Assembly (NCBI GenBank): GCA_964387775.1
Contig: CAYLZO010000002.1
Location: forward strand, 8,003 to 72,002
Direction of reading: 5' to 3'
Source: an uncultured Anaerolineaceae bacterium
GTDB lineage: Bacteria; Chloroflexota; Anaerolineae; JAAYZQ01
Length of the DNA: 64,000 nucleotides
A program made the position numbers and the translations under genes. The notes under the pieces were generated by a model. It was not told where the DNA came from. It searched no databases and saw nothing but the letters and a program-made list of their open reading frames with translations. Each line of letters begins with the position of its first letter. Within the stretch, counting starts at the first letter, position 1. Shown here piece after piece: positions 650 to 37,310 of this stretch.

Positions 650-1228
650 CTATTCGTTGAAAACCAGGCTGAGGAAGCGGTGGAGGATGCGGGCCGTCAG
701 CCCCCAGATGGTGTGCGAGCCGTAATCCCAAAAGAGAACCTCGTGGGGGCGTCCCTCGTGCTCCCAATATTCCACGCGCAGGTGTTTGGGTTCAAGCAAA
801 AAATCGAGAGGCAGCTCCACCACGCCGTCGACTTCGTGGGGATTCAGCCGGTAGTCAAAGGGGTGGGGAACCACGCCGACAAAGGGCGTCACGACAAAGT
901 CGCTGATGGTCGGAAAATCGTCCAGGACGCCCAACACTTTCACACGCTCCGGGGGAATGCCGATCTCTTCGTGGGTTTCGCGCAGGGCCGTCTCCTGGAG
1001 GGAGGCGTCCTGGGGCTCGCAGGCGCCACCGGGGAGGGAGATCTGCCCCTTGTGATGTTCCACGTTCTGGGTCCGCTGGGTGACGAGGACGTGCCACACG
1101 CCTGCCTTGCGCAACAGAGGGATGAGCACCGCCGCGCAGGTCAACGAAGGATCGGCCAGAACGCCTCGCTCTTGCCCGGCGAGGACGCGGCGGACGTGGC
1201 CCTTGAACGCTTCGGGATCGCGGTTCAC
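650..1228 (-). CDS. NUDIX hydrolase, CoA-pyrophosphatase-like
   Basis: Nudix box GGACEPQDASLQETALRETHEEIGI, preceded by LVTQRTQNVEHHKGQISLPGG (NuCoA-like motif). Start placed at GTG 1228, which overlaps the upstream TGA (GTGA); the longer 650..1345 ORF runs into the upstream gene. Confidence 0.8.
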   Translation of the reverse strand: MNRDPEAFKGHVRRVLAGQERGVLADPSLTCAAVLIPLLRKAGVWHVLVTQRTQNVEHHKGQISLPGGACEPQDASLQETALRETHEEIGIPPERVKVLGVLDDFPTISDFVVTPFVGVVPHPFDYRLNPHEVDGVVELPLDFLLEPKHLRVEYWEHEGRPHEVLFWDYGSHTIWGLTARILHRFLSLVFNE

Positions 1229-4200
1229 GTGGGGCTGCGCCTGACCGCGACCAGCGTAAAATCGTCGAACCGGGGGGCGTTGCCGACGAAATCGCCGATG
1301 ACATGCTCGATGGTCTGGGCCAACTCCTCCGCCGTCTGCTGCCAATGGGCGCTGACCAGTTCCCTGAATCGCTCGCGCCCAAACATCTCCCCCTCGGCAT
1401 CCGACGCCTCCACGACCCCGTCGGTGTAGAGGATCAGTAGGTCGCCGGGGTCCAGGTTCACATAGTGCTCGTCAAATTCTACGTCTGGCAGTACGCCCAG
1501 GGCCATGCCGTCCCGCCGCAGCTCCTCCGCCGTGCCGTTGGCGGCGCGGACGAGCAGAGGCGGCATGTGCCCGGCGTTGACAAAGCGCACCTCGCCCGAG
1601 TTTGGCTGAAGAATGGCGTAGAAAAGGGTGACGAACAGGGTAGACCGGGCGTCGGCCAGGATCAGGTTGTTGGCCTGGGCGACGGCCGTCGCCGGGGGAC
1701 GCCCGTCAATGGCCATGGTCCGCACCAACGTGCGTGAGAGGGCCATGAACAAGGCGGCCGGCACCCCCTTGTCCGCCACATCGGCGATGACCACGCCCGT
1801 CCGGCCCGGGCCGTCGCTGCCCCCGTCGGCAGGGAGGGGGATAAAGTCGTAAAAGTCGCCGCTGACCTGCCGCGCCGCGCGCCAGACGGTGGCCAGCTCC
1901 CAGCCGGGCACGTGGGGGCAGCATTCGGGCAGGAAGCTGGTCTGGATGCGCCGGGCCACGTCCAATTCCTGGCGCAATCGCTGCTGTTCGGCGGCCTCTT
2001 GGAGCAACCGGTCGTTTTCGATGGCGATGGCCGCCTGGCCCGCGATCCCGGTCAGAATGTCGAGCCAGCGCTGGCTGATGCGCTGGGCCGGCCCGGTATA
2101 GTCCACGGTCATCATGCCCAGCAACTCGCCCTTGCTGACCAGGGGAAAGGCCAGCACCGAACCCTCTCCCAGGATCTGAGCGCTTGCCTCTGTTTCGGAC
2201 GTCTCTCCCAGGGGCACAAAGGCGACGTCCTGGCGCAACGCCTGGGTCAGGGGATGATCGCCGGGAAAGCGCAGGCCCCAGAAGGCTCGTTGATCTTTGC
2301 CCTCCAGGCCATAGTCGCGGTAGGGCAGGAAGGCGTCGGCACTCAGGTCCCACAAAAAGACGGTGCAAGCCTCGACGCCGGCCAGCAGGGGCGTGATGCG
2401 CACCAGCGTCTCCAGGGCTTCCTCCAGGTCGGCGGCGCGGCTGACGGCTTCGGCCACCTGCACCAGGGCCATCGAGACGTAGGCCTCTTCTTGCTGGGCC
2501 TGCAACAGCCGGGCGCTCTGGATGACCATCGCCGCCTGGTTGGCGATGCCCGTCAGCATCTCGACCGTCCGCTCGCTAAAATGGTGGGGCTGCCCCGCAT
2601 AGTCGACCATCATGACCCCCAGCAGCTCGCCCTGAGCCAGGAGGGGCAGCAGGGCCATCTCCTGAATGTCAAAGGTCTCGGCCAGCTCGGGTGGGATGAG
2701 GCCCGCCTCGTCCTCGGCCTGGACGACGACGGGCACCTTCTCCGAGCAGAGTCGCGCTATTGCGGGGATCGCCTCGGGCGCGAACCAGGTATTCTCGTAG
2801 GCGCTGCGGAGCTCCGGGCGGAGGCCGTGGGTTTGGGCGGGCACGAAGGACTCCAGGTCCGTGTCCCAAAGCAAAATGGCGCAGCGGTCCACGCCGGCCA
2901 GGATGGGCGTCAGGCGCACGATAGTGGTCAGCACGGCGTCAATGTCCGCGACGTAGCTCATCGACTCGGCCACCTGGAGCAGGGCGGTGGAGAGCCAGGC
3001 CTGCTGCCGCTCGGCCTCGTAGAGCTGGGCTTCCTGGATGGCGATGGCGATCTGGTCGCCCAGGGTCTCCAGGATAAAGAGGTCGTCGTCGCCAAAGGCA
3101 TTGGCCTCCCTGCTCTGCACGTCGAGCACGCCCACCAGCCGGTCCTCGAGCAGGAGCGGGACGGACATTTCGGACAGGGTCTCTTCCAGCGCTTCGACGC
3201 AGCGGTAGCGGGTGTCGGTTTCGACGTCGTTGACGATGACGGCCTCGCCGTGGGCGGCGACCCAGCCGATGAGGCCCTCGCCCCAGGCCACGTCAAAGGC
3301 GACGTCGTGGGTTCCGGCGCTGGCGCTGGCCTCAAAATTCACCACCTGGCGCTCGGGGTCGGCGGTAAAGATGGCGATGTGATAGTAGCCGAAATTCTCG
3401 CGCACCAGGTGGACGATCCGTTCAAAGAGTTCGTCCAGTTCCAGCGTGGCGGTCACCTGGCGGCTGACTTGGCTGATGGTCTCCAGTTGGCGGGCGCGCC
3501 GGCGCTCCTGGTTGTAGAGCTGGGCTTTCTGGATGGCGACGGCTGCCTGGTTGGCCATGGCCGACAGCACGCGCAGGTCGCTCTCGCCGTAGGCGCTCCG
3601 CTGGAAGGATTGGATCGACATGGTGCCGATGACGGTTTCGCCGGCGATGAGCGGCACAAAGAGGGCGGAATGGGGCGGCCGTTCCGAGACGTAGGCGGGC
3701 TGGGCCGGCAGCGACTCCAATTCCCTCTCAAAGTCACGGACCAGGATCGGCTGCTTCGATTCCCGCAGCCAGTTAACCAGTCCGACACCGGGGGCGAGAC
3801 GAAAGGAGCGCCTCGGTTCTGGCTGTCCCTCGCGGACCCAGAGCCGGATGTCATAGTCGTCGCCCTCGAAAAAGCCCAGGTGAAAGATGGTCGTGTCCAC
3901 GATGCGGCGGGCGTGTTCGTACATGAGCTGGCAGAGCTCGTCGATGTCCCACTGGGCCTGGACGATGGCCCGGCCCACCTGCTCGATGGTGGTCAGCTCG
4001 GCGACCCGTTGGGTCAAGGCGGTGCGGGTATCGGCCCAGCGCTGGGTCAGGAGCGCGACGGCGACGATGGCCAGCGCCAGCAGAACGAAGGGCAGCCCGC
4101 CGAGTTCGGTGTAGGCCAGGGCAACGACGAGGCTAAGGGGCAGGGGCAGCAGCTCGATGAGCAGGGCGGTAGGGATGGCGTCCTGCACAAAGGTTCGCAG

Positions 4201-4788
4201 GCGCGACAACCCGCCGTCCAGGTAGTCAAAGAAGCCCCAGCCGACGTGATCCAGGGTGAACCACAGGAGGCAGACGGTAGCCAGGGCCAGGGCGGTCTGC
4301 CCGTTGGCGCCCGTCGCGCCGCCGACGGGCAACCGTCCGTTGAGGACCGCGAACAGCCAGCCGCCCAGCAGGGCCATCGAGGCCTTGAGCCCGGCGTTAA
4401 AGAGGGGCACTTCGATGAGGTGCCGCCGGGTCAGCCTGCGGTGGCGCAAGGCGTTCAGCTCCAGATAGGTCAGCCCGCTCCAGGCGGCGACGGCCGCGCC
4501 CCCGGCCGGTCCCAGGGCAAAGACGGCGGCCAGGTCGATGACGCCGGCCAGGCTGTGGACGATGGGTGAGCCCAGGTGAAAGCTGGATCGCTGAACGAGG
4601 AAGGAGAGGATGACAAAGAGAAGGATAGAGGGCCAGGAGGGGAGCTGGGGGGCGGTCACGAGTCGGTAGCCCAGGATGCTCAATCCGGCCAGGCCGACGA
4701 CCACGCTGTAGAACAGGGCGAGCCAGGGATGGCCCGTCGGTGACGTGCGACCTGCCTGGTTCAGCGGTGCAGGGTTCCTATTCGCCAC
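1225..4788 (-). CDS. Membrane-anchored 4xGAF PP2C/SpoIIE-type serine phosphatase (RsbU/RsbP-like output domain)
   Basis: Hydrophobic multi-pass N-terminus. Four copies of the GAF C-terminal helix motif (ANQAAVAIQKAQLY, GDQIAIAIQEAQLY, ANQAAMVIQSARLL, AGQAAIAIENDRLL). C-terminal SpoIIE motifs are SGDFYDF, VVIADVADKGVPAAL, FVNAGHMPP and LILYTDGVVEA. GTG start with an AAGAGG RBS. Confidence 0.85.
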   Translation of the reverse strand: MANRNPAPLNQAGRTSPTGHPWLALFYSVVVGLAGLSILGYRLVTAPQLPSWPSILLFVILSFLVQRSSFHLGSPIVHSLAGVIDLAAVFALGPAGGAAVAAWSGLTYLELNALRHRRLTRRHLIEVPLFNAGLKASMALLGGWLFAVLNGRLPVGGATGANGQTALALATVCLLWFTLDHVGWGFFDYLDGGLSRLRTFVQDAIPTALLIELLPLPLSLVVALAYTELGGLPFVLLALAIVAVALLTQRWADTRTALTQRVAELTTIEQVGRAIVQAQWDIDELCQLMYEHARRIVDTTIFHLGFFEGDDYDIRLWVREGQPEPRRSFRLAPGVGLVNWLRESKQPILVRDFERELESLPAQPAYVSERPPHSALFVPLIAGETVIGTMSIQSFQRSAYGESDLRVLSAMANQAAVAIQKAQLYNQERRRARQLETISQVSRQVTATLELDELFERIVHLVRENFGYYHIAIFTADPERQVVNFEASASAGTHDVAFDVAWGEGLIGWVAAHGEAVIVNDVETDTRYRCVEALEETLSEMSVPLLLEDRLVGVLDVQSREANAFGDDDLFILETLGDQIAIAIQEAQLYEAERQQAWLSTALLQVAESMSYVADIDAVLTTIVRLTPILAGVDRCAILLWDTDLESFVPAQTHGLRPELRSAYENTWFAPEAIPAIARLCSEKVPVVVQAEDEAGLIPPELAETFDIQEMALLPLLAQGELLGVMMVDYAGQPHHFSERTVEMLTGIANQAAMVIQSARLLQAQQEEAYVSMALVQVAEAVSRAADLEEALETLVRITPLLAGVEACTVFLWDLSADAFLPYRDYGLEGKDQRAFWGLRFPGDHPLTQALRQDVAFVPLGETSETEASAQILGEGSVLAFPLVSKGELLGMMTVDYTGPAQRISQRWLDILTGIAGQAAIAIENDRLLQEAAEQQRLRQELDVARRIQTSFLPECCPHVPGWELATVWRAARQVSGDFYDFIPLPADGGSDGPGRTGVVIADVADKGVPAALFMALSRTLVRTMAIDGRPPATAVAQANNLILADARSTLFVTLFYAILQPNSGEVRFVNAGHMPPLLVRAANGTAEELRRDGMALGVLPDVEFDEHYVNLDPGDLLILYTDGVVEASDAEGEMFGRERFRELVSAHWQQTAEELAQTIEHVIGDFVGNAPRFDDFTLVAVRRSPT

Positions 4789-5206
4789 GCGGCAACCTCT
4801 TGACCATGGTCAGTTCGTTGCCTTCCTCGGGGTCGAAGGAAAAGCGGACCTCGTCCATGAACTTTCGGATCAAAAAGAGCCCCAGGCCGCCCAGGGAGCG
4901 CTCCTCCAGGGGAGCGTCCACGTCGGGCTTGGGCACGTCCTCCGGTTCAAAGCTCCGGCCCCAATTACGAACGCGCATGACGAACTTTTTGTCACCGAGG
5001 TGACAGCTGACTTCCATATCGCCCGGCTCCATGTCGCGGTAGGCGTGGTGGACGACGTTGGCGCAGGCTTCGTCCACGGCGAGCTCGATCTGGTGTAGAG
5101 TCCGCTCACTGAAACCGGCCCGCTGGGCCGCCTCGCGCACGCAGGCCATGGCGCGGGGCACGTTTTCCAAAACGGCTTTCATTCTGAACTTGGCGATCTG
5201 TTCCAT
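4778..5206 (-). CDS. RsbW/SpoIIAB-like anti-sigma-type serine kinase (HATPase_c)
   Basis: 142 aa. N-box ELAVDEACANVVHHAY and G-box GGLGLFLIRKFMDEV. Lies directly downstream of a STAS gene and overlaps the PP2C gene by 11 nt. Confidence 0.8.
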   Translation of the reverse strand: MEQIAKFRMKAVLENVPRAMACVREAAQRAGFSERTLHQIELAVDEACANVVHHAYRDMEPGDMEVSCHLGDKKFVMRVRNWGRSFEPEDVPKPDVDAPLEERSLGGLGLFLIRKFMDEVRFSFDPEEGNELTMVKRLPRGE

Positions 5207-5343
5207 CGAATCCCCAGGTAATCAAGCCGGTGGGTTCACCGGCTCTATTACGAATTTTCCCGGGAGGGTGACACGAACAAGACCGCCTCGCATCCCCAGG
5301 GAATTGTGGCGGCCTTGTCCTGTGCCTGTGCCTGTGGTGGGTG

Positions 5344-5682
5344 CTAAAAGCTTCCGACGGCGTGCACGTCCTCGTCGTAGAACTTGAACAGGCGATCAAA
5401 CCCCACGAGGTCAAAGCTCTCTTTTAGTTTGGGCGTGATCTCGGAGATGACGACGTCCCCGCTCGGAATCGCCTTGCGGACCTTCATCTGAGCCGAGAGG
5501 AGTGCTTTGAGCCCGGCGCTGCTAATGTAGGGTGCGTCGGCCAGGTTCACGACGATGTTCTTCTGGCCTGCCTGGATCAGGCCCAGCAGGACCTTTTCCA
5601 ATTCTGGAGCGGTGGTGCTGTCAATCCGGCCCGAGACGGTGACCAACTCACAGCGCTTCATGGCCTCGGTCTTGATCTCCAT
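5344..5682 (-). CDS. STAS-domain anti-sigma-factor antagonist (RsbV/SpoIIAA-like)
   Basis: 112 aa from ATG 5682, with an AGGAGG RBS 7 nt upstream. Conserved phosphorylatable Ser context APYISSAGLKALL. The 197-aa ORF in the track is an upstream extension through non-coding repeats. Confidence 0.85.
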   Translation of the reverse strand: MEIKTEAMKRCELVTVSGRIDSTTAPELEKVLLGLIQAGQKNIVVNLADAPYISSAGLKALLSAQMKVRKAIPSGDVVISEITPKLKESFDLVGFDRLFKFYDEDVHAVGSF

Positions 5683-5737
5683 GGTTCGACCTCCTGTCTG
5701 ATTGAGTTTCGGAGCGTTGGCTTGAGCAACGTTGGGC

Positions 5738-5766
5738 ATTGTACCACAGTTACTTGCAGAGAGCAA
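5738..5766 (-). promoter_or_regulatory. Sigma-70-like promoter for the RsbV/RsbW/PP2C operon
   Basis: Minus strand reads TTGCTC (5766-5761), a 17-nt spacer, then TGgTACAAT (extended -10; hexamer 5743-5738). It lies about 55 nt upstream of ATG 5682. The -35 hexamer is inside the proximal copy of a 15-bp tandem repeat. Confidence 0.45.
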
Positions 5767-5785
5767 ACGTGCAGAGAGCAAACGA
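5756..5785. repeat. 15-bp tandem direct repeat (gcagagagcaaacgt / gcagagagcaaacga)
   Basis: Two adjacent copies, 14/15 identical, read directly. The proximal copy overlaps the putative -35 element. Confidence 0.9.
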
Positions 5786-5900
5786 GCGGGATTTCGTATC
5801 TTCCTGCCGTGGCCAACAGGATGATTTGCATTGTCCCACCGCAAGGCGGCAGGGCTGGTTGGCTGACAAAACTCTATTCGGCTTCTTGGCGGCAGGGACA

Positions 5901-5964
5901 GGACGCAGATTAGCGCAGATTCTTTGTGCTTTTTCATCTGCGTTTATCTGCGAAATCTGCGTCC
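5901..5964. repeat. Small palindromic intergenic element, copy 1 (GCAGATT/AATCTGC family)
   Basis: Perfect 11-bp terminal inverted repeats: ggacgcagatt (5901-5911) and aatctgcgtcc (5954-5964). Internally there are 2 forward gcagatt units and 3 reverse atctgc units around a T-rich spacer. Confidence 0.8.
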
Positions 5965-6040
5965 AGAGAGATCTGTCAGTCAACCAGGGCGGCAGGGTCT
6001 CCAGCGCGAAGGATTCTATAAAACTTCTTTGCGTCAAGAT

Positions 6041-7495
6041 CTAGGGGATTGTTCCACCCGTCTCGGTTGCCAGGCGCACGGCGGTCATCGCCAGGCCCAG
6101 GTAGAGCCAAAAGATCGAGACTGAGTGGGGAAAGTTTAGGTTAAAGAAATAGTGGTCGAGGACGCCGCCCACCAGGATGCCCGCCACCGCAGCCGTCAGC
6201 CCCAGCAGGATGGCTTCCAGGCCGGCGCGCTGACGGACCTGGGGCCAGGCCCGCCACACGTGCCAGAAAAAGAGGCCGATGGTGAGGAGAAAGACGGCCA
6301 GGCCGATGAGTCCCATTTCCTCAGCCATGAGGAGGTAGACGCTAGAAACGCCGATGTAGAGGCTGGTCTCCGGCGTGGACACGAACCCGACCCCGATCCA
6401 CGGGTGGCGGCTGATCAGCGCAAAGGCATCCTTGTATTCGCCCAGGCGCATCTGGGTTGCCAGGTCCTGGGTGCGGATGCCCTCCACAAAGTGCTGGACA
6501 TAATCCTGAGCCTGGGGCAGGAGGAGCAGGAGGGCCGCGCCCACCACGAGGGCAGGGATGAGCTTCCGGTACTTGACCAGGGCCAACACGCCCAGGCCCA
6601 CCGCCAGGCCGGCCATCGAGCCCCGGGAGTAGGTGAGGTAGAGGCAGAAGGCGTCGATCACAAACATGGCGGCCAAAAGGCGGCGCGAGAGAAGGGGCTC
6701 GCGGGCAAAGAGCTGGGCGCCCGTCAGGGTGGTGATGAGGATGAGCAGGCCGCCTAGCACGTTGGGGTCGGTGGAGGTCGAGATGGCGCGCAGGGGCAGG
6801 TCGGGATTGTCCTCGACGTAGCGCAGCACGCCCGGCCCGGAGGGATAGCCCACCCGCCCCAGGGCCGAGAGCAGCCGGATGCTCCAGTCGGCGGGCAGGT
6901 AGTAGAGCACCACGCCGATGACGGCAGCGCCGAATCCGGCCAGGAGAAGGGCGGTGACCAGCAGGCGCAATTGCGGGCGGGTCTGCACGGTATTGACCAC
7001 GACGAAAAAGAGCCCAATGCTGAGCAAAAGCTCGACAAAGTGGCGTAGGATGTATTGGTCGAGGTAAGCGTGAGCCAGGCCGGCGATGAACGAGGCGCAG
7101 GCCAGCAGCATAAAGACGACGATGGGCAGGCCCAGGGGTGTGGCGACGAACTGCCCTGCCTTGCCGGTGGCGATGCGCATCAGCCACACGAAATAGAGGG
7201 CGATGAGGGCCAGGTCCAGGAAGGTGGGCGTGAAGCCGATCTTGAAGGGCAGGGCGCCAAAGGGGAGCAGGCAGATCACGCCGGCGACGGCGATGAGGCT
7301 CCACTGGGTGTCGCGCAGCATCAGCAGCCCGCCGGCGAGGGCCACGACCCCCGCCACGGCAAAGAGGGGCGAGAGGATGGCCACGTAAGCGCCGGCCAGC
7401 AGCCCGGCGGCGAGGCAAAATGCAACGACCGCCGCCAGGGCAAAGCGACGGTCACTTTCGACGAATATCCGTTGCAAAGCGGTCACAGTTTCCAA
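6041..7495 (-). CDS. O-antigen ligase/polymerase-like (Wzy_C family) multi-pass membrane protein
   Basis: 484 aa, hydrophobic throughout. Has the YSRGSMAGLAVGLGVLAL motif region typical of O-antigen ligase domains. Confidence 0.7.
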   Translation of the reverse strand: METVTALQRIFVESDRRFALAAVVAFCLAAGLLAGAYVAILSPLFAVAGVVALAGGLLMLRDTQWSLIAVAGVICLLPFGALPFKIGFTPTFLDLALIALYFVWLMRIATGKAGQFVATPLGLPIVVFMLLACASFIAGLAHAYLDQYILRHFVELLLSIGLFFVVVNTVQTRPQLRLLVTALLLAGFGAAVIGVVLYYLPADWSIRLLSALGRVGYPSGPGVLRYVEDNPDLPLRAISTSTDPNVLGGLLILITTLTGAQLFAREPLLSRRLLAAMFVIDAFCLYLTYSRGSMAGLAVGLGVLALVKYRKLIPALVVGAALLLLLPQAQDYVQHFVEGIRTQDLATQMRLGEYKDAFALISRHPWIGVGFVSTPETSLYIGVSSVYLLMAEEMGLIGLAVFLLTIGLFFWHVWRAWPQVRQRAGLEAILLGLTAAVAGILVGGVLDHYFFNLNFPHSVSIFWLYLGLAMTAVRLATETGGTIP

Positions 7496-31383: not shown

Positions 31384-32469
31384 TCACGACGACCTCGGTT
31401 CTACTTTTCGCGCCTTGGCCTTGACGGCTTCGATCTCCTGATCGGTTAGGACTCGCTCAAAGCTGCGAAATCCGGAAAGGCGGAAGCCGTGTGTGGTCGC
31501 GAGCTCGGCAATCTCGTCCACCTTTTCCAGCGAGATCTCTTTGCCGAGTGTATAACATTCGTACCGTTCCTCCAGGGCCAGGATCATCGTCTCTGCCATG
31601 CAGGCATAGGCCTTGCCCGGCGGGAAGCCAAAGTCAAATCCAAAGTTGGCCTGACCGGGCACGTCCATCACGCCTCCCTCGATGACGAGTACGTCGTCTC
31701 GCTCGTCGGCCACGCAGCGGGAGACGTTTCGGGGCCGGGCCACGTCACAGACGACGGCGCCCGGCTTTAGATGGGCCGGCTCGATGATCGGCTCGACGGC
31801 GCTGGTTACGGTGAGCACCACGTCGGCTTGCCGGACGTCGGCCAGCCGGGTGCTGGTGGTGGCCCGAGCGCCCAGCAGCTCGACCTGCCCCTTGACCCTC
31901 TCCAACCGGGCTGCGTCCCGGCCGACGAGCAGCAGGTGGGGCACCGTCCGGGCCAGAAGTTGGGCGCAAGCCTGGCCGATGGCGCCGTAGGCCCCGACCA
32001 CGGCGGCCAGGCAGCGGCCGGGTTCGAGGCCCATGCGCCGGGCGGCTTCCAGCGCCGCCTCGACCGCTACGGCAATGGTCAGGCTGTTGCCCGTCGTTAC
32101 CGGAATGGACAGTTTGCGCGAGACCGTCATGCCCGCGTCGCCGACGACCGACGTAAAGGCCCCCAGGCCGAGAATTCGCGCCCCCTGGCGCTCGGCGAGG
32201 TGCCCCGTCTGGACGATCTTGTTGTAGGCTGCCGAGACCGGGATCTCGAGCATCCGCTTAGGCGTGACCGGGCAGGCGACCAACCAGCCCTCGATCTCGG
32301 CACCGGTAGCTTTGGAGCGGATGCCGGTGACGTGACTCAGATACACCGGCGGGAAGTAGCGCGAAAAGTAGTCGATGACGTTCGCGGGCAACTTGCCCAG
32401 CAAGGGAAACTTGCGGGCTACGTCCTTTTGCGGCTCGATGGGATGGATCATGAAGGCAAAGTTGTTCAT
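31384..32469 (-). CDS. Acyl-ACP reductase-like NAD(P)-dependent oxidoreductase (cyanobacterial AAR / shikimate-DH-like family)
   Basis: 361 aa. GLGAFTSVVGD, VTTGNSLTIAV, Rossmann segment AAVVGAYGAIGQACAQLL and YACMAETMILALEE are collinear with recalled S. elongatus AAR motifs (GGFTSI, TTGNTHTAYV, VAVVGATGDIGSAV, FACFAEAMLLEFEG). Confidence 0.6.
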   Translation of the reverse strand: MNNFAFMIHPIEPQKDVARKFPLLGKLPANVIDYFSRYFPPVYLSHVTGIRSKATGAEIEGWLVACPVTPKRMLEIPVSAAYNKIVQTGHLAERQGARILGLGAFTSVVGDAGMTVSRKLSIPVTTGNSLTIAVAVEAALEAARRMGLEPGRCLAAVVGAYGAIGQACAQLLARTVPHLLLVGRDAARLERVKGQVELLGARATTSTRLADVRQADVVLTVTSAVEPIIEPAHLKPGAVVCDVARPRNVSRCVADERDDVLVIEGGVMDVPGQANFGFDFGFPPGKAYACMAETMILALEERYECYTLGKEISLEKVDEIAELATTHGFRLSGFRSFERVLTDQEIEAVKAKARKVEPRSS

Positions 32470-32557
32470 CGTCTAGCCCGCTTGGAGCAAAGGTGGCCTG
32501 CTCCCCGGCGATTCGGTGTATGTGCGTCCCTTCCCCTCGCTCAATCATGACTCCCTG

Positions 32558-33808
32558 CTACCGTGGATAGAGTCTGGGATGAAAATCGGCATCCGGCCAG
32601 TCCAGGTGATCGCTCTCTTCGTACGCGACGTTGTGCGAGATCACGGACCGGTCATCCTTCTTGGCCAAGATGACGTCCGACTCGATGATTCTGGCCGGAT
32701 AAATGGTCAGGTCGGCGCCAATGCGGCAATGGTGGCCGACGCAGCCGCCCAGCACCGTCGCCCCCACGTCCTCCAGGTGATCCCGGTGGATGGTGCGCAG
32801 GGGCTTGGGAATCAAGTTAAAATCGGTAAAGGTCGTGCCTGCGCCAATAAAAGAGTCGCGGCCCACGACGCAGAATTGCAGGCAGGCGTTCTGGGCCACC
32901 ATGGTGTCTTCCATGAGCGTGCTCATAAAGAGTGAGGATCGGAAGGGCAGATAGCAGCGGTCGCCGATCACGCTGATGAGCAGTTCATTGCCGTGCAGGA
33001 TGCTGACATTGTTGCCGATGATGCAATTCGAAATGGTCACGCCGGCCCCAATGTAGACGTTGTCGCCGATGATGGTTGGCCCCTGGATCACGGCGGTCGG
33101 GTCGATCTGGCTGTTGCGGCCGATCTCGACCATGTGGGAATTGCTCAGGAATTGCTTTCGCTCCAACAGCGAGCGCCAAAAGACCTTGAGTTGCATTCTG
33201 AACCTGCTGAGGCTGCGCTCCATGCGCGCGCCCTCGGCCAGGACGCCAAAGAGGCAGTTGGTGACATAAATGTGAACCCAGTTCTCGATAGAGAGGAAGG
33301 CGCGGGTGGGGATCTGAAAGACCAGGTCGCCCTTGGCCGTGGACATGTGGGTGGGCACCCGATAGGAGCCGAACTCGTAGGCGCCGCAGTCGACAACCAG
33401 GGGGCGGGTCATCTCCTCCAGCCCCCGGGGATAGTACCACATGTTGCCGACGTAGACGTCCCCTTCGCGGCGGATGCCGCTCTGGAGGGTGAGGGCGTGG
33501 CTGGTGATGACCTTGTCGTCCAGCGAAAAGGCGACGCGGCACGCTTTGCCCAGGGATCTGGCTTTGGAGAGGAAGGCCTCGATGAATGCCTCGTCGAAAA
33601 AGAGGTTGTCGCGATAGACGAGGGTCTCCTCGTATTCGCCGTTAGGGATCTGCTCAAAAAAGTCTACTTCGATCTCGGAGCCGGTGTAGGGGGCCAGTAC
33701 GTCTTTTTGGTGGAGCCAGAGGGGCTTGTTGAGTACTCTCAGATCGCGGGCAGGCTCGTTGAACGGAGGTATCTTTCGTTTGTCCCGAATGATGACCTTT
33801 CTCATCAC
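32558..33808 (-). CDS. Left-handed beta-helix (hexapeptide-repeat) transferase-like protein with an uncharacterised N-terminal domain
   Basis: 416 aa. Hexapeptide run IDPTAVIQGPTIIGDNVYIGAGVTISNCIIGNNVSILHGNELLISVIGDRCYL, and later GAGTTFTDFN ... GHHCRIGADLTIYPARIIESDV. Confidence 0.55.
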   Translation of the reverse strand: MMRKVIIRDKRKIPPFNEPARDLRVLNKPLWLHQKDVLAPYTGSEIEVDFFEQIPNGEYEETLVYRDNLFFDEAFIEAFLSKARSLGKACRVAFSLDDKVITSHALTLQSGIRREGDVYVGNMWYYPRGLEEMTRPLVVDCGAYEFGSYRVPTHMSTAKGDLVFQIPTRAFLSIENWVHIYVTNCLFGVLAEGARMERSLSRFRMQLKVFWRSLLERKQFLSNSHMVEIGRNSQIDPTAVIQGPTIIGDNVYIGAGVTISNCIIGNNVSILHGNELLISVIGDRCYLPFRSSLFMSTLMEDTMVAQNACLQFCVVGRDSFIGAGTTFTDFNLIPKPLRTIHRDHLEDVGATVLGGCVGHHCRIGADLTIYPARIIESDVILAKKDDRSVISHNVAYEESDHLDWPDADFHPRLYPR

Positions 33809-33813
33809 GGTGC

Positions 33814-34470
33814 TTAATCCAATGGCCGCTTGTCAATGACGTAGGTACACGTTGCATCCCCTTTGGCGATGCAGAGCGTCTCCTCCACCCGCATGTTCTT
33901 CCCGCCGGTGACCCAGTGCAGGCCCTCCAGCAGGAGGCCCAGGCCGCCGTGGCAAATCGGGACGTCCGATTCTCTCTGCCAGCACACGGGGCAGCGGTCG
34001 ATGTGATAGAGAAAGTGATCGACCTCTTCTTCAACCCGGACGATCTGGTCGCTCGTTTTGTTAAAGGTCTCGGCCATGGCGTTGAGGCCCACTTTCATCT
34101 TCATGCCCAGGGGCAGCAGACGAAAGGCCAGGTCGGCGACGCCCAGGACGGCACCAAAGTCCTTGAGGGCGTAGTAGAGTCCCGCTCGCCCGGCTCGAAC
34201 GGAAAGCCCCTTGCCTCCGCGCGGGCCGTACATGTCGTCCAGCGCCTGGTTCAGGGCCCCCATTTCCTCAAAACTCCAGCCGAGGTCCAGGTTGTTGGGC
34301 GGATAGTTGTTGATGAGGTGACGCAACTTGGCCAAATTGAGGACCGCGTTCACCCCGTTCTTGCCCATGACGTCTTCCAGGGCGAGGAGGTACATCCGCC
34401 CCATTTTGTTGGGCCAGTAATACTGCTCGGTGGATTCCGCTTTGATCTGTTCGTCGTTGGTCATCCTCAC
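33814..34470 (-). CDS. V4R (4-vinyl-reductase) small-molecule-binding domain protein
   Basis: 218 aa. C-terminal V4R signature: IDRCPVCW ... ICHGGLGLLLEGLHWVTGG ... VEETLCIAKGDATCTYVI. Confidence 0.7.
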   Translation of the reverse strand: MRMTNDEQIKAESTEQYYWPNKMGRMYLLALEDVMGKNGVNAVLNLAKLRHLINNYPPNNLDLGWSFEEMGALNQALDDMYGPRGGKGLSVRAGRAGLYYALKDFGAVLGVADLAFRLLPLGMKMKVGLNAMAETFNKTSDQIVRVEEEVDHFLYHIDRCPVCWQRESDVPICHGGLGLLLEGLHWVTGGKNMRVEETLCIAKGDATCTYVIDKRPLD

Positions 34471-34477
34471 TTGCCTT

Positions 34478-35260
34478 TCAATTAGCCAGGAAGCTCAGGA
34501 GAATTGGATAAAAGTCCTCCGGTTCATCCAGCATCGGGAAGTGGCGTGAACCCGCCATCAACTCCACGCGGGAACGCGCGACGCGACGGAACAATTCTGC
34601 CTGTCTGGGGTCGACGATCTTGTCGCCCTGCCCGTAGACGCCCATCGTTGGCATGCGCAAGGTACCCAGCCGGGGACGCAGGTCGGTGCGGTGGAGGGAG
34701 TGGATGCTCCATAGAAAGGATTCCAAGGTCATTTTGGACAGATCGCCCATCAACAAGTCGTACCAATCGCTCCAGTTGGCCGCGATCCAGGGCGCAAAAA
34801 GCTTGATGCCCAGGCGCAACAGCGCCGGCGAGTTCCAAACCAGGAACGCGATCCACGGCTGGCCTGCCAATTTGAGAAAGACGTTCAACGAGCGGCCGTC
34901 TATAGGCGAGCCGACGACGGCTACCTTTTCCACACGTTGCGGGCGATCGAGGGCCAGGTTCAGCGCGACGGTGCCCCCCATCGAGTGGCCAATGACCGGC
35001 GCACGCTGGATGCCCAGCCTTTCCATAAACTGATCCACCAACGCGACAAAATCCGAGACGTTGTAGCTTTCACGGCGCTTGTCCGATTCACCAAACCCCC
35101 AAAAGTCGAGGGCGTAGGCCCGGTATCGCGAGGACAGGGCCTCCATAGTGCCCAACCAACAGCCCCACGAGCCCAGCCATCCGTGAAGCAGCACGACCGG
35201 TTTGCCGCGTCCATAGGTTTCGTAATGGACGACGCCTTGGTTAGTAACGATGGAGCTCAA
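34478..35260 (-). CDS. Alpha/beta hydrolase (canonical Ser nucleophile), paralogue of 7700-8491
   Basis: 260 aa. Motifs are HGWLGSWGCW, GHSMGG, GQGDKIV and SRHFPMLDE. Alignable end to end with the 263-aa protein at 7700-8491. Confidence 0.85.
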   Translation of the reverse strand: MSSIVTNQGVVHYETYGRGKPVVLLHGWLGSWGCWLGTMEALSSRYRAYALDFWGFGESDKRRESYNVSDFVALVDQFMERLGIQRAPVIGHSMGGTVALNLALDRPQRVEKVAVVGSPIDGRSLNVFLKLAGQPWIAFLVWNSPALLRLGIKLFAPWIAANWSDWYDLLMGDLSKMTLESFLWSIHSLHRTDLRPRLGTLRMPTMGVYGQGDKIVDPRQAELFRRVARSRVELMAGSRHFPMLDEPEDFYPILLSFLAN

Positions 35261-35317: not shown

Positions 35318-35689
35318 TCAGATCAATCGGCTCAAATCCTCGGCGGCGCGGCGCATGTCCAAAAAGACCAAGCCCAGCTTGGCATCTTTGTGAGCCAGTA
35401 CGGTGAGTACGGCGTCTTCTCCGACTGAAGTCAGGATCACGTAGCCGTTGGCGCCCCGGATGTAGACCTGGTCCAGGATCCCCCGCCCCAATTCGCCCGC
35501 AATTCGCTCGCCCAAGCTGAGCATGGCCGCACTCATGGCCGAAACCCGGTCTTCTTCCACGTCCGTGGGGAGTGCGGAGGCGATGATGAGCCCGTCGACG
35601 CTCACCACGGCGGAGGCCTCAATATCGGGCGTGCTGATTTGTAGATCTTTGAGGCGAGCTACCATCTGTTCCGTGCGTGATCGTGTCAT
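35318..35689 (-). CDS. Roadblock/LC7 (MglB-like) domain protein
   Basis: 123 aa. Motifs IEASAVVSVDGLIIASALP ... MSAAMLSLGERIA ... GYVILTSVGEDAVLTVL are typical of Roadblock/LC7. Confidence 0.8.
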   Translation of the reverse strand: MTRSRTEQMVARLKDLQISTPDIEASAVVSVDGLIIASALPTDVEEDRVSAMSAAMLSLGERIAGELGRGILDQVYIRGANGYVILTSVGEDAVLTVLAHKDAKLGLVFLDMRRAAEDLSRLI

Positions 35690-35735: not shown

Positions 35736-36266
35736 CTATTCGGGGGTCTTGTCCAGTATGGTATAGAGCAGCTCCAATAGAACTCGTTTTACACTTTCTT
35801 TTTCCGTTGCTACACAAGGCAGCAATTTGATGTCCGGCCGGACCTTGAGGGCGATGCGCAGGTCTTCAGGGGGCCAGGCGTCCTCCATGTCCTGCTTGTT
35901 GGCGGCGACGACGTAGGGGGTATGGGCGTAATTGCGAAAGATGTCCAGGATGCGGCGCGCTTCGCGAAAGGTCTCAGGGCGGACACTGTCCACCAAAACG
36001 ACAAAGCCGAGCATGCCTTCGGAGAGGATCTCCCACATAAAATCGAAGCGTTTCTGGCCGGGCGTGCCAAATAGGTAGAGGACAAGGTCTTCGTCCACTG
36101 CGATGCGCCCAAAGTCCATGGCGACGGTGGTTTCCCGTTTGATCCGGGAGGTGGCGTCCGTGATCTTGCGCTCGGTGGATACGACGTCAATCTCGCTAAT
36201 GGTGCGAATGAATTCGGTCTTGCCAGCGCTAAAGGGGCCGGTAATAACCATCTTTACTGTTTGCAT
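35736..36266 (-). CDS. MglA/CvnD-like small GTPase (ATP/GTP-binding protein)
   Basis: 176 aa. G1 is GPFSAGKT, G3 is LFGTPGQ (lacks the canonical Asp, as in MglA-type GTPases), and G4 is ANKQD. Confidence 0.8.
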   Translation of the reverse strand: MQTVKMVITGPFSAGKTEFIRTISEIDVVSTERKITDATSRIKRETTVAMDFGRIAVDEDLVLYLFGTPGQKRFDFMWEILSEGMLGFVVLVDSVRPETFREARRILDIFRNYAHTPYVVAANKQDMEDAWPPEDLRIALKVRPDIKLLPCVATEKESVKRVLLELLYTILDKTPE

Positions 36267-36369
36267 CTTTGCATCAACCTTGTCCTATATCACCAATGAT
36301 CTAGTAAGCCGAATGCTTCAACTTGGGACGGCATCCCGGCCGATCCTGGGATGCTGCCCATGCACTCCC

Positions 36370-37197
36370 CTAAAGCCGCTTGATCCGGTCGATCAGCTTG
36401 TGGATGACGGATCGTTTGACCGCCGGCGGCCGCGAGATGACCTTTTCCATCGCGGCGGTTGGGGCTCTGCGCGGTTTTGCGCCTTCCGGTTCTATGATCT
36501 CAACCAGGCCGGCCTGCAAGAGCCCATAGACGATCTTGCGGATCTGGAAATCGTCCATCCCGATGCGCTGGCCGATCCGCTTGATGGAGTTTTTGGGATT
36601 GATGTAGGAGATAACGCGCCACTCGTCTACGCTCAGGTTGATGTTACGCAACTGGGCCTGGGGGCGGTCGGTGAATTTGAGCGCCATCTCCAGATCGGGC
36701 AGTTCGTCCTGCAGCCGCTCCCATTCCTTGACCCGGCGGCTTCCTTCCAGGATGATGTTCTCCAGGTCTATGGAGACGGTGATGGCGTCGTTGGCCGGCA
36801 ATTGGTTGGGCTCAAAGTGGAACAAGCCCTCGGTCCACGTAAAGAGGCTGTAGACCACGTCCAGAAAGTCGCTGCGGACACTGTTCAGGATGTCCGACTG
36901 GCTGACGTGACCAGCGCTGATGAGGAGCATTCCCAGCTCCTTGTCGGTCTTGACGCCGGCTCGCTCCCGGATCACCCTGGCCTGCTCGCGGGTCAGCTTT
37001 CCGCCCCGGGCCAATACGCTGGCCAAGTGCGAGTCTCTGCCGCTTGCCGTGGCGTAGACCAACTTGCCCTCGCGAAAAAAGAGGGTTGTCACGCCCGGCT
37101 GGACCTGTGTCGTCAGGGCACCGGTCTTGCGTGCCAGGTGGATCAGATTCAAGAGCTGTGTCGTGCTAAAGTCTCTGAGGTTCCCTTTCAGCGCCAT
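36370..37197 (-). CDS. DUF4388 (PATAN-like) domain protein with a C-terminal winged-helix-like segment
   Basis: 275 aa. The N-terminus LKGNLRDFSTTQLLNLIHLARKTGALT is the typical DUF4388 opening. The C-terminus LSVDEWRVISYINPKNSIKRIGQRIGMDDFQIRKIVYGLLQAGLVEI looks like a wHTH (DUF742/CvnC-like). Confidence 0.7.
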   Translation of the reverse strand: MALKGNLRDFSTTQLLNLIHLARKTGALTTQVQPGVTTLFFREGKLVYATASGRDSHLASVLARGGKLTREQARVIRERAGVKTDKELGMLLISAGHVSQSDILNSVRSDFLDVVYSLFTWTEGLFHFEPNQLPANDAITVSIDLENIILEGSRRVKEWERLQDELPDLEMALKFTDRPQAQLRNINLSVDEWRVISYINPKNSIKRIGQRIGMDDFQIRKIVYGLLQAGLVEIIEPEGAKPRRAPTAAMEKVISRPPAVKRSVIHKLIDRIKRL

Positions 37198-37281
37198 CTC
37201 GACTTATCCTTTGATTCGTTGTCGGCCCTGGCCTCATTTCTCGGTCAACGGCCATCCTCGGTGCTGACCTTGCTGCCGCCC

Positions 37282-37310
37282 ATTATACCTTGTCTCCAAG
37301 TATAAGTCAA
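37282..37310 (-). promoter_or_regulatory. Near-consensus sigma-70 promoter driving the minus-strand supercluster
   Basis: Minus strand reads TTGACT (37310-37305), a 17-nt spacer, then TATAAT (37287-37282). It lies about 85 nt upstream of ATG 37197. Confidence 0.6.

Follow-up and report, generated by a model that had tools for sequence, protein, structure and literature searches.

A lineage-specific signalling locus assembled from known modules in uncultured Anaerolineae (Chloroflexota)

The window, by which we mean the whole 64,000-nt stretch of DNA analysed here, contains a long block of signalling genes which a sequence-only reading had described as 26 protein genes and one tRNA, all on the minus strand between 650 and 37197. 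This layout was borne out by Pfam and NCBIfam annotation and, for the tRNA, by ARAGORN and Rfam (the 26th gene encodes a 162-aa STAS protein at 10314–10802), and all features described below are on the minus strand. Among the plus-strand ORFs that overlap the block, the ten longest had no Pfam match and are therefore regarded as spurious high-GC antisense ORFs. The junctions are as tight as had been claimed, with 20 of 26 being ≤60 nt or overlapping, and the four largest gaps are indeed 5683–6040, 5207–5343, 36267–36369 and 32470–32557. Different module types are joined by overlapping stop and start codons, e.g. the PDZ kinase and REC kinase genes, and the RsbX and REC genes are separated by 20 nt. 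Co-orientation by itself is unremarkable here because the neighbouring, unrelated polysaccharide genes, in a cluster 5 kb from the block, lie in a plus-strand run at least 16 genes long. The G+C content of the block is uniform (58–67%) and the same as that of its surroundings, no integrase, transposase or recombinase was found by Pfam among the 26 genes, and no notable direct or tandem repeats were found in the sequence. No sigma factor was found within the 64-kb window, and no transcription factor or effector was identified for the locus.

The block opens with a 275-aa PATAN (DUF4388 / PatA_N) protein (36370–37197; Pfam E 1.4e-28) which is 83–89% identical in the related lineages L095 and L096 and has a weak MarR-like match in the C-terminal 120 aa (E 0.097). 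It is followed by a 176-aa MglA-like small GTPase (35736–36266; Pfam ATP_bind_1, Ras and Arf), for which the top PDB match is Thermus MglA (E 6.5e-7) and which shows 88% identity in relatives, and by a 123-aa Roadblock/LC7 (MglB-like) protein (35318–35689; Pfam E 3.5e-20) with 94–95% identity among relatives. Beyond this triad are α/β hydrolase B (34478–35260; Pfam Abhydrolase_1, E 4.7e-33) and a 218-aa V4R-domain protein (33814–34470; Pfam V4R, E 1.2e-6, although the score of 28.9 bits is under the Pfam gathering cutoff of 31), which is 77–91% identical and found in all lineages covering the slot bar L016, including the minimal L099. The next gene encodes a 416-aa left-handed β-helix (hexapeptide, LbH) protein (32558–33808; Pfam Hexapep, E 8e-18), 81–88% identical in relatives, in which only residues ~225–335 match GlmU, QdtC and γ-CA, with no match found for the N-terminal 225 aa. 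The acyl-ACP-reductase-like (AAR-like) oxidoreductase (31384–32469; PDB and NCBIfam matches), the gene with a ‘Shikimate_DH’ match, aligns over its full length with the acyl-ACP reductase 6JZQ (E 8e-24) and also matches the PigE N-terminal domain 4PPM (E 1.5e-36).

The 298-aa response regulator that follows (30443–31339; Pfam) combines a receiver with a GGDEF fold, and is 77–90% identical across the clade in more than 120 cluster representatives (74–86% in the comparison of syntenic relatives). The phospho-acceptor Asp, Thr and Lys of the receiver are all invariant, and the GGDEF signature reads GGDDF or GGDQF with the fourth residue being D or Q across the clade. In an alignment with PleD, an invariant glycine (G161) takes the position of the metal-binding Asp327 and the RxxD I-site is absent. 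The label of c-di-GMP-type output given to this protein earlier is doubtful because these catalytic residues are non-canonical. On its residues, the protein is probably inactive as a cyclase, and we say no more than probably because a GGDDF enzyme, GSU1937, can be active (PMC8835794); it probably serves as a phosphorylation-controlled adaptor or nucleotide binder instead.

Three histidine kinases are encoded next. The first is a giant cytoplasmic hybrid kinase of 2972 aa (21452–30370; Pfam) with 13 GAF, PAS, HisKA, HATPase and two REC domains (Pfam and GAF profile), whose orthologs range from 1630 to 3279 aa and carry 7–14 GAFs. The second is an 870-aa membrane kinase with a PDZ–multi-TM–GAF–HisKA–HATPase architecture (18834–21446; Pfam and hydropathy), for which ~55 full-length orthologs share 46–60% identity, and the third is a REC–GAF–GAF–HisKA–HATPase kinase (16634–18844; Pfam) limited to the window, L013, L095 and L011/12. 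Further along are a single-domain, CheY-like receiver of 130 aa (8527–8919; Pfam E 2.5e-31), 65–89% identical in relatives, and α/β hydrolase A (7700–8491; Pfam), 64–79% identical. We count five receiver domains in the block rather than the four claimed. The count of 25 GAF domains (13+4+4+2+1+1) was reproduced using an HMM built from the window’s own domains, in agreement with Pfam stretch counts, with two of the 25 partial or degenerate (giant kinase residues 1380–1443 and GAF4-STAS residues 638–713). The motif by which they had been counted, A.Q.A.AI.NA.L[YF], matches literally only four times; it approximates the C-terminal GAF helix as a loose consensus and is unusable for counting. TM prediction gives four membrane-embedded sensors in the block plus the Wzy_C protein.

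Between the third kinase and the single receiver lies a stressosome cassette. Five RsbR-like proteins are encoded: an 876-aa protein with three full GAFs and one partial before the STAS domain (13993–16623; Pfam and GAF count), 68% identical in L013; a membrane-integral paralog (12848–13996; TM prediction) with 5–6 TM helices, a coiled coil and a STAS domain matching Listeria RsbR (E 5e-29) with both phospho-Thr positions kept; a second membrane-integral paralog (11760–12851; Pfam STAS, TM prediction); a 322-aa GAF-STAS paralog (10799–11767; Pfam); and the short 162-aa STAS protein (10314–10802; Pfam STAS, E 1.1e-16), 72% identical in L013. These are followed by a 125-aa RsbS (9934–10311; E 2e-35 to Listeria and Bacillus RsbS) which keeps the phospho-Ser ‘DSF’ and has JGI homologs carrying the name RsbS, and directly after rsbS by a 135-aa RsbT-like GHKL Ser/Thr kinase (9540–9947; Pfam HATPase_c and HATPase_c_2) with N, G1 and G2 boxes seen in a SpoIIAB alignment. 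The cassette ends with a 198-aa RsbX-like stand-alone PP2C (8940–9536; Pfam SpoIIE, E 5.4e-9, full length).

The tRNA is tRNA-Sec (selC; 7531–7626; ARAGORN, and Rfam RF01852 at 69.6 bits), and its slot is unchanged in every relative covering it (L009–L012 and L097–L099). The adjacent gene encodes a Wzy_C / O-antigen-ligase-like membrane protein (6041–7495; Pfam E 7.7e-17) with ~11 TM helices, 71–79% identical in every relative covering the slot. The partner switch comprises a 112-aa SpoIIAA/RsbV-like STAS antagonist (5344–5682; PDB SpoIIAA, E 4e-8) with the Ser position kept and 73–82% identity in relatives, a 142-aa RsbW/SpoIIAB-like kinase (4778–5206; Pfam HATPase_c_2, E 1.3e-32), and an 1187-aa membrane protein (1225–4788; Pfam SpoIIE, E 1.2e-55) with 5–6 TM helices, four GAFs and a PP2C phosphatase domain, the orthologs of which carry four GAFs without exception. 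All five claimed module types (GTPase switch, REC-GGDEF protein, kinases, stressosome and partner switch) are thus present. The last of the 26 genes, on the flank of the backbone, encodes a NUDIX hydrolase (650–1345; Pfam; the true start is probably near 1240) which is syntenic in L097–L099, whereas L009 and L010 have DUF58 in its place.

The locus appears to have at least three conserved promoters, and because of these we regard the block as more than one operon. The head promoter P1 (37282–37312; AGTTGACT, 17-nt spacer, TATAAT; 11/12 consensus match) is invariant in seven lineages, in an intergenic region whose mean identity is 42%, and is kept even in L097 and L099, both of which are without the first three genes. 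P2 (7638–7666; TTGACG, 17-nt spacer, TATCCT; consensus scan) has its −35 and −10 conserved 5′ of tRNA-Sec in relatives, and P3 (5738–5766; TTGCTC, 17-nt spacer, TG-extended TACAAT) includes an element, TnTGGTAnAAT, which is invariant in seven lineages where the region around it has 28% mean identity. Phylogenetic footprinting found no footprint upstream of the REC-GGDDF or giant kinase genes, and no intergenic terminator-like sites were seen on the minus strand of the block. Judged from these elements, P1 could drive expression from PATAN through hydrolase A (~29.5 kb and 21 genes with short or overlapping junctions), P2 tRNA-Sec and possibly Wzy_C too, and P3 the partner switch.

When gene neighbourhoods were compared across related genomes, the modules proved not to be scattered: about ten related Anaerolineae lineages share their order and orientation, and the proposal of a non-chance neighbourhood therefore stands (most relatives are MAGs or metagenome contigs, and cassette absence refers to the locus and not the whole genome). 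The full 26-gene arrangement is found in at least one further lineage (L096 plus L013) and probably on four more contigs. Small non-sensor proteins are 72–95% identical compared to 47–61% for the sensor kinases (and 73–74% for PepM24 and 63–74% for DUF3048 in the flank), and by these identities the small proteins are under purifying selection. Several modules are optional: L098 and L100–102 are without the REC-GAF2 kinase and stressosome; L097 is in addition missing PATAN-MglA-Roadblock and the AAR-like gene; and L099 retains only the backbone (V4R, one kinase, tRNA-Sec, Wzy_C, partner switch and NUDIX). The presence or absence of stressosome, REC-GAF2 kinase, PATAN-MglA-Roadblock and AAR-like gene is independent of one another. 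By indirect matching of RsbS orthologs to cluster genes, the stressosome is confined to the closest relatives of the window, with the two paired on only six contigs.

This is a real, undescribed and lineage-specific arrangement of known modules, and not one indivisible new circuit. We consider it likely that this signalling locus has been inherited vertically within a clade of uncultured Anaerolineae (Chloroflexota) as a backbone plus optional cassettes. Its place in the chromosome would be fixed, with a divergent DUF3048 gene on one side and NUDIX, or whatever has replaced it, on the other. The backbone, seen in all relatives covering it (bar V4R in L016), would comprise the head promoter, V4R, membrane GAF histidine kinase, tRNA-Sec, Wzy_C and the STAS/RsbW-like/4×GAF-PP2C partner switch. 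The cassettes would be PATAN-MglA-Roadblock; α/β hydrolase, LbH and AAR-like enzyme; REC-GGDDF and giant multi-GAF hybrid kinase; REC-GAF2 kinase; RsbR(×5)-RsbS-RsbT-RsbX stressosome; and single REC with the second hydrolase, of which the window carries the maximal configuration.

Going by what is known of these protein families, several mostly GAF-based and membrane-embedded sensors would act in parallel, with the three HisKA kinases passing phosphoryl groups to the five receivers, the stressosome, where present, releasing RsbT to a partner, and the GAF-PP2C and RsbW-like kinase controlling phosphorylation of the STAS protein without involvement of the stressosome. A handful of small, slowly evolving proteins (REC-GGDDF, the CheY-like REC, MglA/Roadblock/PATAN and V4R) may be where these inputs meet. 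The target is likely to be a cell-envelope, surface-polymer or polarity process, a circumstantial link made because of the four membrane-embedded sensors, Wzy_C and the nearby polysaccharide cluster.

The sequence-only reading had proposed one integrated decision circuit, of which the conserved neighbourhood stands but obligatory integration does not. In its strong form, RsbT acts on the GAF-PP2C switch, the kinases act on a c-di-GMP-producing REC-GGDEF, and all feed a GTPase switch. Complete co-orientation with tight junctions, the recurrence of the full arrangement elsewhere, and the encoding of every σB-like cascade component except the sigma factor are in keeping with this. However, it was already weakened by the presence/absence matrix, as most relatives have no stressosome and yet always have the partner switch (kept in six lineages with a stressosome-free locus), and PATAN-MglA-Roadblock is missing from L097 and L099. 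The partner switch is also served by a conserved promoter of its own, the catalytic residues of the GGDEF domain are degenerate, and Pfam found no RsbU-type N-terminal docking domain (RsbU_N), the criterion for RsbT docking taken from PMC12143880, in any block protein, leaving action of RsbT on the GAF-PP2C unsupported. We therefore think an indivisible circuit unlikely.

Slightly less likely again is passive synteny, in which kinship and a lack of rearrangement have kept RsbRSTX, STAS/RsbW/PP2C and MglA/MglB together as independent systems without cross-talk. Every relative comes from a single clade of Anaerolineae, so that synteny partly reflects shared ancestry. Most relatives also keep synteny in the upstream flank (DUF3048, YjbQ and PepM24), and long same-strand runs are normal for this genome. 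Against this, gene order is kept despite sensor divergence to 47–56% identity and changed flanks (downstream in L009 and L010, and upstream in L016, which is without DUF3048), cassettes are gained and lost only at fixed slots 3′ of one invariant promoter, and the cross-module junctions tie different module types together. Finally, since enterobacterial pathogenicity islands integrate at selC, the tRNA-Sec inside a block of varying gene content might suggest a mobile island, but this is very improbable and essentially refuted by the missing mobility genes and repeats, the uniform G+C, variable slots located away from the tRNA 3′ end, and conserved genes (hydrolase A and Wzy_C) on both sides of the tRNA.

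The backbone-plus-cassettes locus can be compared with several known systems. Like the Bacillus/Listeria σB cascade, it has RsbS and RsbR STAS domains matching solved proteins with phospho-Ser and phospho-Thr positions kept, multiple RsbR paralogs, the order rsbS–rsbT–small PP2C, and a SpoIIAA/RsbV-like STAS, RsbW-like kinase and sensor PP2C nearby. It differs in having no sigma factor in the 64 kb, a PP2C with TM helices and four GAFs rather than RsbU_N, a separately promoted partner switch which is stressosome-free in most relatives, and RsbR N-termini that are GAF arrays or 5–6 TM domains and not globins. Stressosomes with non-sigma outputs include that of Vibrio vulnificus, downstream of which are two-component proteins (PMC9237108), and that of Moorella thermoacetica, with the GGDEF protein MtG (as cited in PMC12143880). 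As in these, RsbRSTX is found among histidine kinases and receivers with no sigma factor adjoining and, as in V. vulnificus, the neighbours have no detectable RsbU_N domain. In contrast, there are five RsbR-like proteins rather than the one of Vibrio, and the cassette, which is optional inside a larger conserved locus, has a REC-GAF2 kinase immediately upstream of it and a single REC immediately downstream.

As in the MglA/MglB polarity modules with PATAN neighbours (Wuichet & Søgaard-Andersen 2014; PMC4316618), a Ras-like GTPase without the G3 Asp adjoins Roadblock and PATAN proteins, though unlike group-1 MglA the G3 Thr is replaced by Gly and there is no Arg53 finger. The GTPase/Roadblock pair shares the block with histidine kinases as in actinobacterial conservons (CvnABCD; PMC13343842), but the locus is not a conservon because CvnC/DUF742 is absent, and in neither system do V4R, hydrolase, LbH and reductase genes follow as they do here. 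The REC-GGDDF protein resembles PleD, WspR and DgcR in its REC and GGDEF fold and invariant receiver residues, while differing in the Gly at the Asp327 position, the signature and the missing I-site; its conservation across the clade (77–90% identity) is unusually high. Degenerate-GGDEF receptors or adaptors such as FimX and CbrR (PMC8779298) are also among its closest known counterparts. Lastly, although the GAF-PP2C has four GAFs, an N-terminal 5–6 TM domain and no sigma factor alongside, it is like Clostridioides difficile RsbZ and Streptomyces coelicolor OsaC (PMC12143880) in its tandem GAFs, helical linkers and PPM/SpoIIE phosphatase, with a STAS antagonist and RsbW-like kinase adjoining.

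The sequence-only reading had described a continuous set of minus-strand genes at 650–37197, and our Pfam and NCBIfam annotation supports this for 26 protein genes and a tRNA. In transcription order the block starts with a PATAN protein, an MglA-like GTPase and a Roadblock protein, followed by an alpha/beta hydrolase, a V4R protein, a left-handed beta-helix (LbH) protein, an acyl-ACP-reductase-like enzyme and a REC-GGDEF-like regulator. Three HisKA and HATPase_c kinases come next: a giant cytoplasmic hybrid kinase of 2972 aa with 13 GAF, PAS, HisKA, HATPase and two REC domains (21452–30370), a membrane PDZ/multi-TM/GAF kinase (the PDZ kinase, 18834–21446) and a REC-GAF-GAF kinase (16634–18844). 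Beyond these lie five RsbR-like STAS proteins, RsbS, an RsbT-like kinase and an RsbX-like PP2C (the stressosome cassette, 8940–16623), then a CheY-like REC protein, a second hydrolase, tRNA-Sec and a Wzy_C membrane protein, and the block ends with a partner switch (1225–5682) of a SpoIIAA/RsbV-like STAS protein, an RsbW-like kinase and a membrane 4xGAF-PP2C, and with a NUDIX gene. The 3' end of a GH1 beta-glucosidase gene (130–639, plus strand) is found at the left edge, convergent with the NUDIX gene. Because the G+C of the window is about 64%, spurious antisense frames crowd the ORF lists; of the plus-strand ORFs that overlap the block, the ten longest had no family match. The 26th protein gene is a 162-aa STAS gene (10314–10802), and an apparent 250-aa 'STAS' ORF is really the 125-aa RsbS with its start at 10311. 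After start correction, junctions are as short as had been claimed, with 20 of the 26 at or below 60 nt or overlapping, and the four largest gaps are unchanged (5683–6040, 5207–5343, 36267–36369 and 32470–32557). Co-orientation, offered earlier as a sign of one circuit, is unremarkable by itself because at least 16 unrelated genes to the right likewise run together on the plus strand.

An HMM profile trained on the GAF domains of the window itself gave the same 25 GAF domains in six proteins (13+4+4+2+1+1) as counted before, two of which are partial copies. The motif quoted as the counting rule does not itself produce this number, as a literal regular expression has only 4 matches, and the profile count was therefore used instead; the motif loosely summarises the last helix of the GAF domain, and a degenerate form of it ends each of the 23 full-length domains. 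Pairwise identity between copies has a mean of 22% and a maximum of 37% and there is no DNA-level repeat, which marks the copies as ancient; with tandem repeats absent, recent DNA-level duplication of GAF units can be ruled out. Giant kinase orthologs have 7–14 GAF domains and PP2C orthologs always have four.

We compared gene neighbourhoods from related Anaerolineae (L009–L013, L016 and L095–L102), taken around orthologs of the PDZ kinase and the REC-GGDEF-like protein, by tblastn. Homologs of the block proteins, where they carry names, are from Anaerolineae MAGs. A large protein database contained about 55 full-length orthologs of the PDZ kinase (46–60% identical); a species-genome scan had no close ortholog, its matches being generic kinase cores from unrelated phyla, and in a metagenome scan with the regulator the matches listed were mostly generic receiver domains, with L015 and L016 the only orthologous ones among them. 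Gene order and orientation are kept in about ten lineages, and the complete 26-gene arrangement was found again on a JGI contig (L096 plus L013). The flanks change: L009 and L010 have DUF58 in place of NUDIX and keep the block, and the most divergent locus, L016, is without the DUF3048 flank and keeps PATAN, MglA, hydrolase, LbH, reductase and regulator genes. Across relatives the small proteins (Roadblock 94–95%, MglA 88%, PATAN 83–89%, V4R 77–91% and LbH 81–88% identity) exceed the flanking housekeeping genes (PepM24 73–74%, DUF3048 63–74%), with the sensor kinases at only 47–61%. The kept order, the changed flanks and the higher identity of the small proteins together argue against a chance neighbourhood.

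The relatives also differ by whole cassettes. L098 and L100–L102, from a species present in many samples, are without the REC-GAF-GAF kinase and the stressosome, L011 and L012 are without the stressosome, and L097 lacks PATAN-MglA-Roadblock, the reductase, the second kinase and the stressosome. L099 has only an unannotated 210-aa gene, V4R, one GAF kinase, tRNA-Sec, Wzy_C, the partner switch and NUDIX. The stressosome slot of L009 (12697–14488) and L010 (12442–14257) is occupied by a 434–443-aa GAF protein and an RsbT-like kinase (53–58%); this GAF protein has no STAS domain and is 42–44% identical to the N-terminal half of the GAF4-STAS protein, and the pair could be a decayed stressosome or the precursor of one. 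In a census based on RsbS homologs, in which contigs were matched indirectly, by identical length, across three match lists, RsbS orthologs (78–100% identical) and cluster genes shared a contig in six cases only (lengths 75445, 47766, 48569, 47959, 31337 and 22144), all from the window's nearest relatives. For many of the long cluster contigs, among them ones of 118 kb, 119 kb, 195 kb and 1 Mb, there was no RsbS ortholog. The giant kinase ortholog is divided into 3–4 ORFs in L009 (1977–9995) and L095 (10952–16613), two long-read-style assemblies, probably as a result of frameshift errors or pseudogenisation, and is a single ORF of 1630–3279 aa in the other lineages.

Transcription of the block as a single operon is not favoured by its promoter-like sites, as conserved footprints are found upstream of tRNA-Sec and the partner-switch STAS gene as well as at the head of the locus. 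The top promoter-like match in 38 kb is upstream of the first gene, and when the head intergenic region was aligned for seven lineages the only invariant block was AGTTGACT-N17-GTATAAT (P1, 37282–37312), which is unchanged even in L097 and L099 where another gene comes after the promoter. Alignment of relatives also revealed a conserved TTGACG/-10 pair upstream of tRNA-Sec (P2, 7638–7666) and an extended -10 that does not vary, TnTGGTAnAAT (5748–5738, within P3 at 5738–5766), ahead of the partner-switch STAS gene. A perfect 15-bp tandem duplication on the plus strand at 5755–5784, TGCAGAGAGCAAACG x2, overlaps the -35-like TTGCTC of P3, so the window genome has two copies of this -35 region. 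Upstream of the regulator and the giant kinase there is no promoter footprint and the Shine-Dalgarno sequence alone is conserved, and for this reason a 9/12 promoter-like match at 31372–31343 was regarded as unsupported. A simple terminator scan placed no minus-strand site in any intergenic gap, and its totals were within about 2 SD of shuffled sequences (19 vs 12.5, sd 3.1; 11 vs 13.2, sd 4.3). No riboswitch or structured RNA was found in the gaps at Rfam gathering thresholds, tRNA-Sec being the sole match. From the conserved footprints we infer at least three transcription units, running from PATAN to hydrolase A (P1, about 29.5 kb), from tRNA-Sec (P2), perhaps with Wzy_C, and through the partner switch (P3). 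Of the proposal that the block is one integrated circuit, the part that stands is that the neighbourhood is not due to chance; the modular make-up, the cassettes missing from relatives and the number of predicted transcription units count against the rest.

The tRNA-Sec gene (selC; 7531–7626, minus strand) keeps its slot directly upstream of Wzy_C, on the strand of the signalling genes, in all relatives covering the position (L009 15978–16075, L010 15639–15736, L011 16348–16445, L097 13823–13920, L098 13973–14070 and L099 12834–12931). No selA, selB, selD or obvious selenoprotein gene was seen within the 64-kb window. A genomic island at selC was ruled out, as there is no integrase, the G+C is uniform and conserved genes abut the tRNA.

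The 298-aa regulator (30443–31339) is 77–90% identical across more than 120 cluster representatives, against 46–60% for the adjoining kinases, and is probably phosphorylatable because its receiver residues are invariant. The sequence-only reading assigned it a c-di-GMP-type output. A GGDEF fold is present (Pfam E 2.9e-11, a partial match to 5–107 of 161), and the C-terminal domain of an AF2 model (pLDDT 73–91) had PleD, WspR and DgcR as top Foldseek matches; the model was made from an alignment of search matches only and its receiver half was of low confidence, so that only the C-terminal domain was used. The catalytic and metal-binding residues are degenerate and the I-site is absent. In alignment with PleD, the metal-binding Asp327 on beta1 corresponds to an invariant Gly (G161) and Asp329 to Lys or Asn, the signature is GGDDF, or GGDQF in one widespread lineage, and the I-site RxxD is without its Arg, with TGGD or TGSD five residues before the signature. 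The GGDDF motif alone is not decisive, as the GGDDF enzyme GSU1937 can be active (PMC8835794). With the beta1 Asp missing and the signature varying between D and Q, the protein is unlikely to be a canonical cyclase, and we consider it quite probably inactive as one. 'REC-GGDEF' at this locus should not be equated with c-di-GMP synthesis in annotation, and the clade-wide degenerate protein offers a clean case for the role of pseudo-cyclase receivers.

Stressosomes are pseudo-icosahedral complexes of about 1.8 MDa. In the window, RsbS (9934–10311) matches the Listeria (6QCM, E 2.3e-35) and Bacillus (6JHK, E 2.5e-35) proteins and keeps the phospho-serine in 'VDSFIAK', and an RsbR-type protein (12848–13996), of which four more STAS proteins are paralogs, has a STAS match to Listeria RsbR (E 5e-29) with the 'DVTGVP' and 'GIRPEVAQT' threonines kept. 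The RsbT-like kinase is a 135-aa GHKL protein with N, G1 and G2 boxes encoded directly after rsbS; its best curated-family match was SpoIIAB, below that family's cutoff, in a set that had no RsbT-specific model. The RsbX-like protein (8940–9536; 198 aa) matches Pfam SpoIIE over its full length (E 5.4e-9) and starts 3 nt past rsbT. Two RsbR-type proteins (12848–13996 and 11760–12851, minus strand) have five to six predicted N-terminal TM helices followed by a coiled coil, with orthologs of 390 and 363 aa in L013, and their TM domains had only a weak and non-significant MASE11 match (E 0.16). They are candidate integral-membrane paralogs that would provide a membrane-tethered stressosome. Should they assemble with RsbS, the idea that stressosomes are purely cytoplasmic would be called into question; transmembrane RsbR proteins are hardly mentioned in the stressosome literature we searched.

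The partner switch consists of a 112-aa STAS protein (5344–5682; SpoIIAA match E 4e-8, with the Ser aligned), a kinase (4778–5206; HATPase_c_2 E 1.3e-32) and a phosphatase (1225–4788; SpoIIE E 1.2e-55), and these three are contiguous in all relatives. It had been asked whether RsbT acts on the GAF-PP2C. The RsbU-type N-terminal domain is the known RsbT docking module (PMC12143880), and Pfam RsbU_N had no match at E≤1e-3 in any of the 26 proteins; such a domain is likewise reported to be missing around the stressosome genes of Vibrio vulnificus (PMC9237108). As the partner switch occurs throughout the relatives under a promoter of its own and the stressosome is rare, the two are probably not obligatorily coupled, and the adjacent two-component proteins are the more likely stressosome partner by analogy with Vibrio (PMC9237108). 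Neither the annotated genes across the 64 kb nor the loci of the relatives contained a sigma-factor domain.

The MglA-like GTPase, whose gene is 46 nt upstream of the Roadblock gene, has GPFSAGKT, FGTPGQ and NKQD in alignment with Thermus MglA, and the G3 Asp is absent. Because Gly replaces the G3 Thr and Thr replaces Arg53, its sequence places it as a non-group-1 member of the MglA family in the scheme of PMC4316618. An actinobacterial conservon (CvnABCD) was ruled out for the block, which has the order PATAN-GTPase-Roadblock and no CvnC/DUF742 match. The C-terminal 120 aa of the PATAN protein (36370–36730, minus strand) have a weak MarR_2 winged-helix match (E 0.097), which is not significant and hints that the protein could bind DNA.

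The hydrolase, V4R, LbH and reductase-like genes form a conserved enzyme and ligand-binding sub-block inside the locus (31384–35260, minus strand). V4R is a small-molecule-binding domain, the 'Shikimate_DH' match is homologous over its full length to cyanobacterial AAR and to the N-terminal reductase of PigE, and the N-terminal 225 aa of the LbH protein had no significant domain match; the role of the sub-block may be to produce or detect a small molecule derived from lipid. On the other side of the locus, a Uma2-family putative endonuclease gene (41226–41996, plus strand) separates the PepM24 gene from a large cluster for polysaccharide biosynthesis (42142–62375, plus strand), which includes an epimerase, a Wzx-type flippase, about seven sulfotransferases, several GT2 and GT4 glycosyltransferases and a 1490-aa Wzy_C-TPR-cyclophilin fusion protein, and whose product appears to be a sulfated polymer. 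The G+C at 42–48 kb is 56–59%, compared with about 64% elsewhere.

Beyond the observed module identities, gene order, cassette pattern and promoter footprints, a working scheme can be proposed from what is known of these families. The three HisKA kinases would phosphorylate some of the five receivers in the block, RsbT would be held by the RsbR/RsbS complex and freed on stress, the STAS protein would be toggled by the RsbW-like kinase and the GAF-PP2C, and Roadblock would act as the GAP for the MglA-like GTPase. Our best guess for the target, and a tentative one, is a cell-envelope, surface-polymer or polarity process, since four sensors and Wzy_C are membrane proteins, the polysaccharide cluster is 5 kb away, and other MglA/PATAN systems are regulators of polarity and patterning. 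A more complete reading, improbable when all its parts are taken jointly, is that the locus is a regulatory hub specific to filamentous Anaerolineae, in which a multi-GAF phosphorelay would act through the REC-pseudo-GGDEF protein, as a phosphorylation-gated adaptor or nucleotide sensor, on the MglA/Roadblock/PATAN switch and so on an envelope or surface-polymer machine (Wzy_C), and in which in some lineages a membrane-tethered stressosome with partly integral-membrane RsbR would feed the two-component network and not a sigma factor. If true, four signalling chemistries would be wired together in a new way, and the stressosome would have a new form, bound to the membrane.

Sediments, digesters and sludge contain abundant Anaerolineae, which are hard to culture and whose signalling, to our knowledge, has hardly been studied. 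The locus is real and well defined in these uncultured hosts, as a conserved set of about 10–26 genes whose small output proteins are more constrained than the neighbouring housekeeping genes, which marks them as important for the biology of the clade. The relatives provide a natural 'deletion series' for the stressosome, the GTPase triad and the giant kinase, from which the wiring might be inferred.

Every module is of a known kind and the locus is not a new mechanism. FimX is a precedent for a non-catalytic GGDEF receiver. CbrR is a further precedent (PMC8779298), PATAN-MglA-MglB neighbourhoods have been documented (PMC4316618), and GAF-PP2C partner-switch phosphatases are known in RsbZ and OsaC (PMC12143880). 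Stressosomes wired to non-sigma outputs have also been described (PMC12143880, PMC9237108), including the proposal that the Vibrio stressosome talks to two-component proteins (PMC9237108). Compared with these systems, what is new as far as the literature we searched shows is the conserved Anaerolineae-specific arrangement, the hyper-conserved degenerate REC-GGDEF protein, the integral-membrane and GAF-array RsbR paralogs, and the embedded, separately promoted tRNA-Sec.
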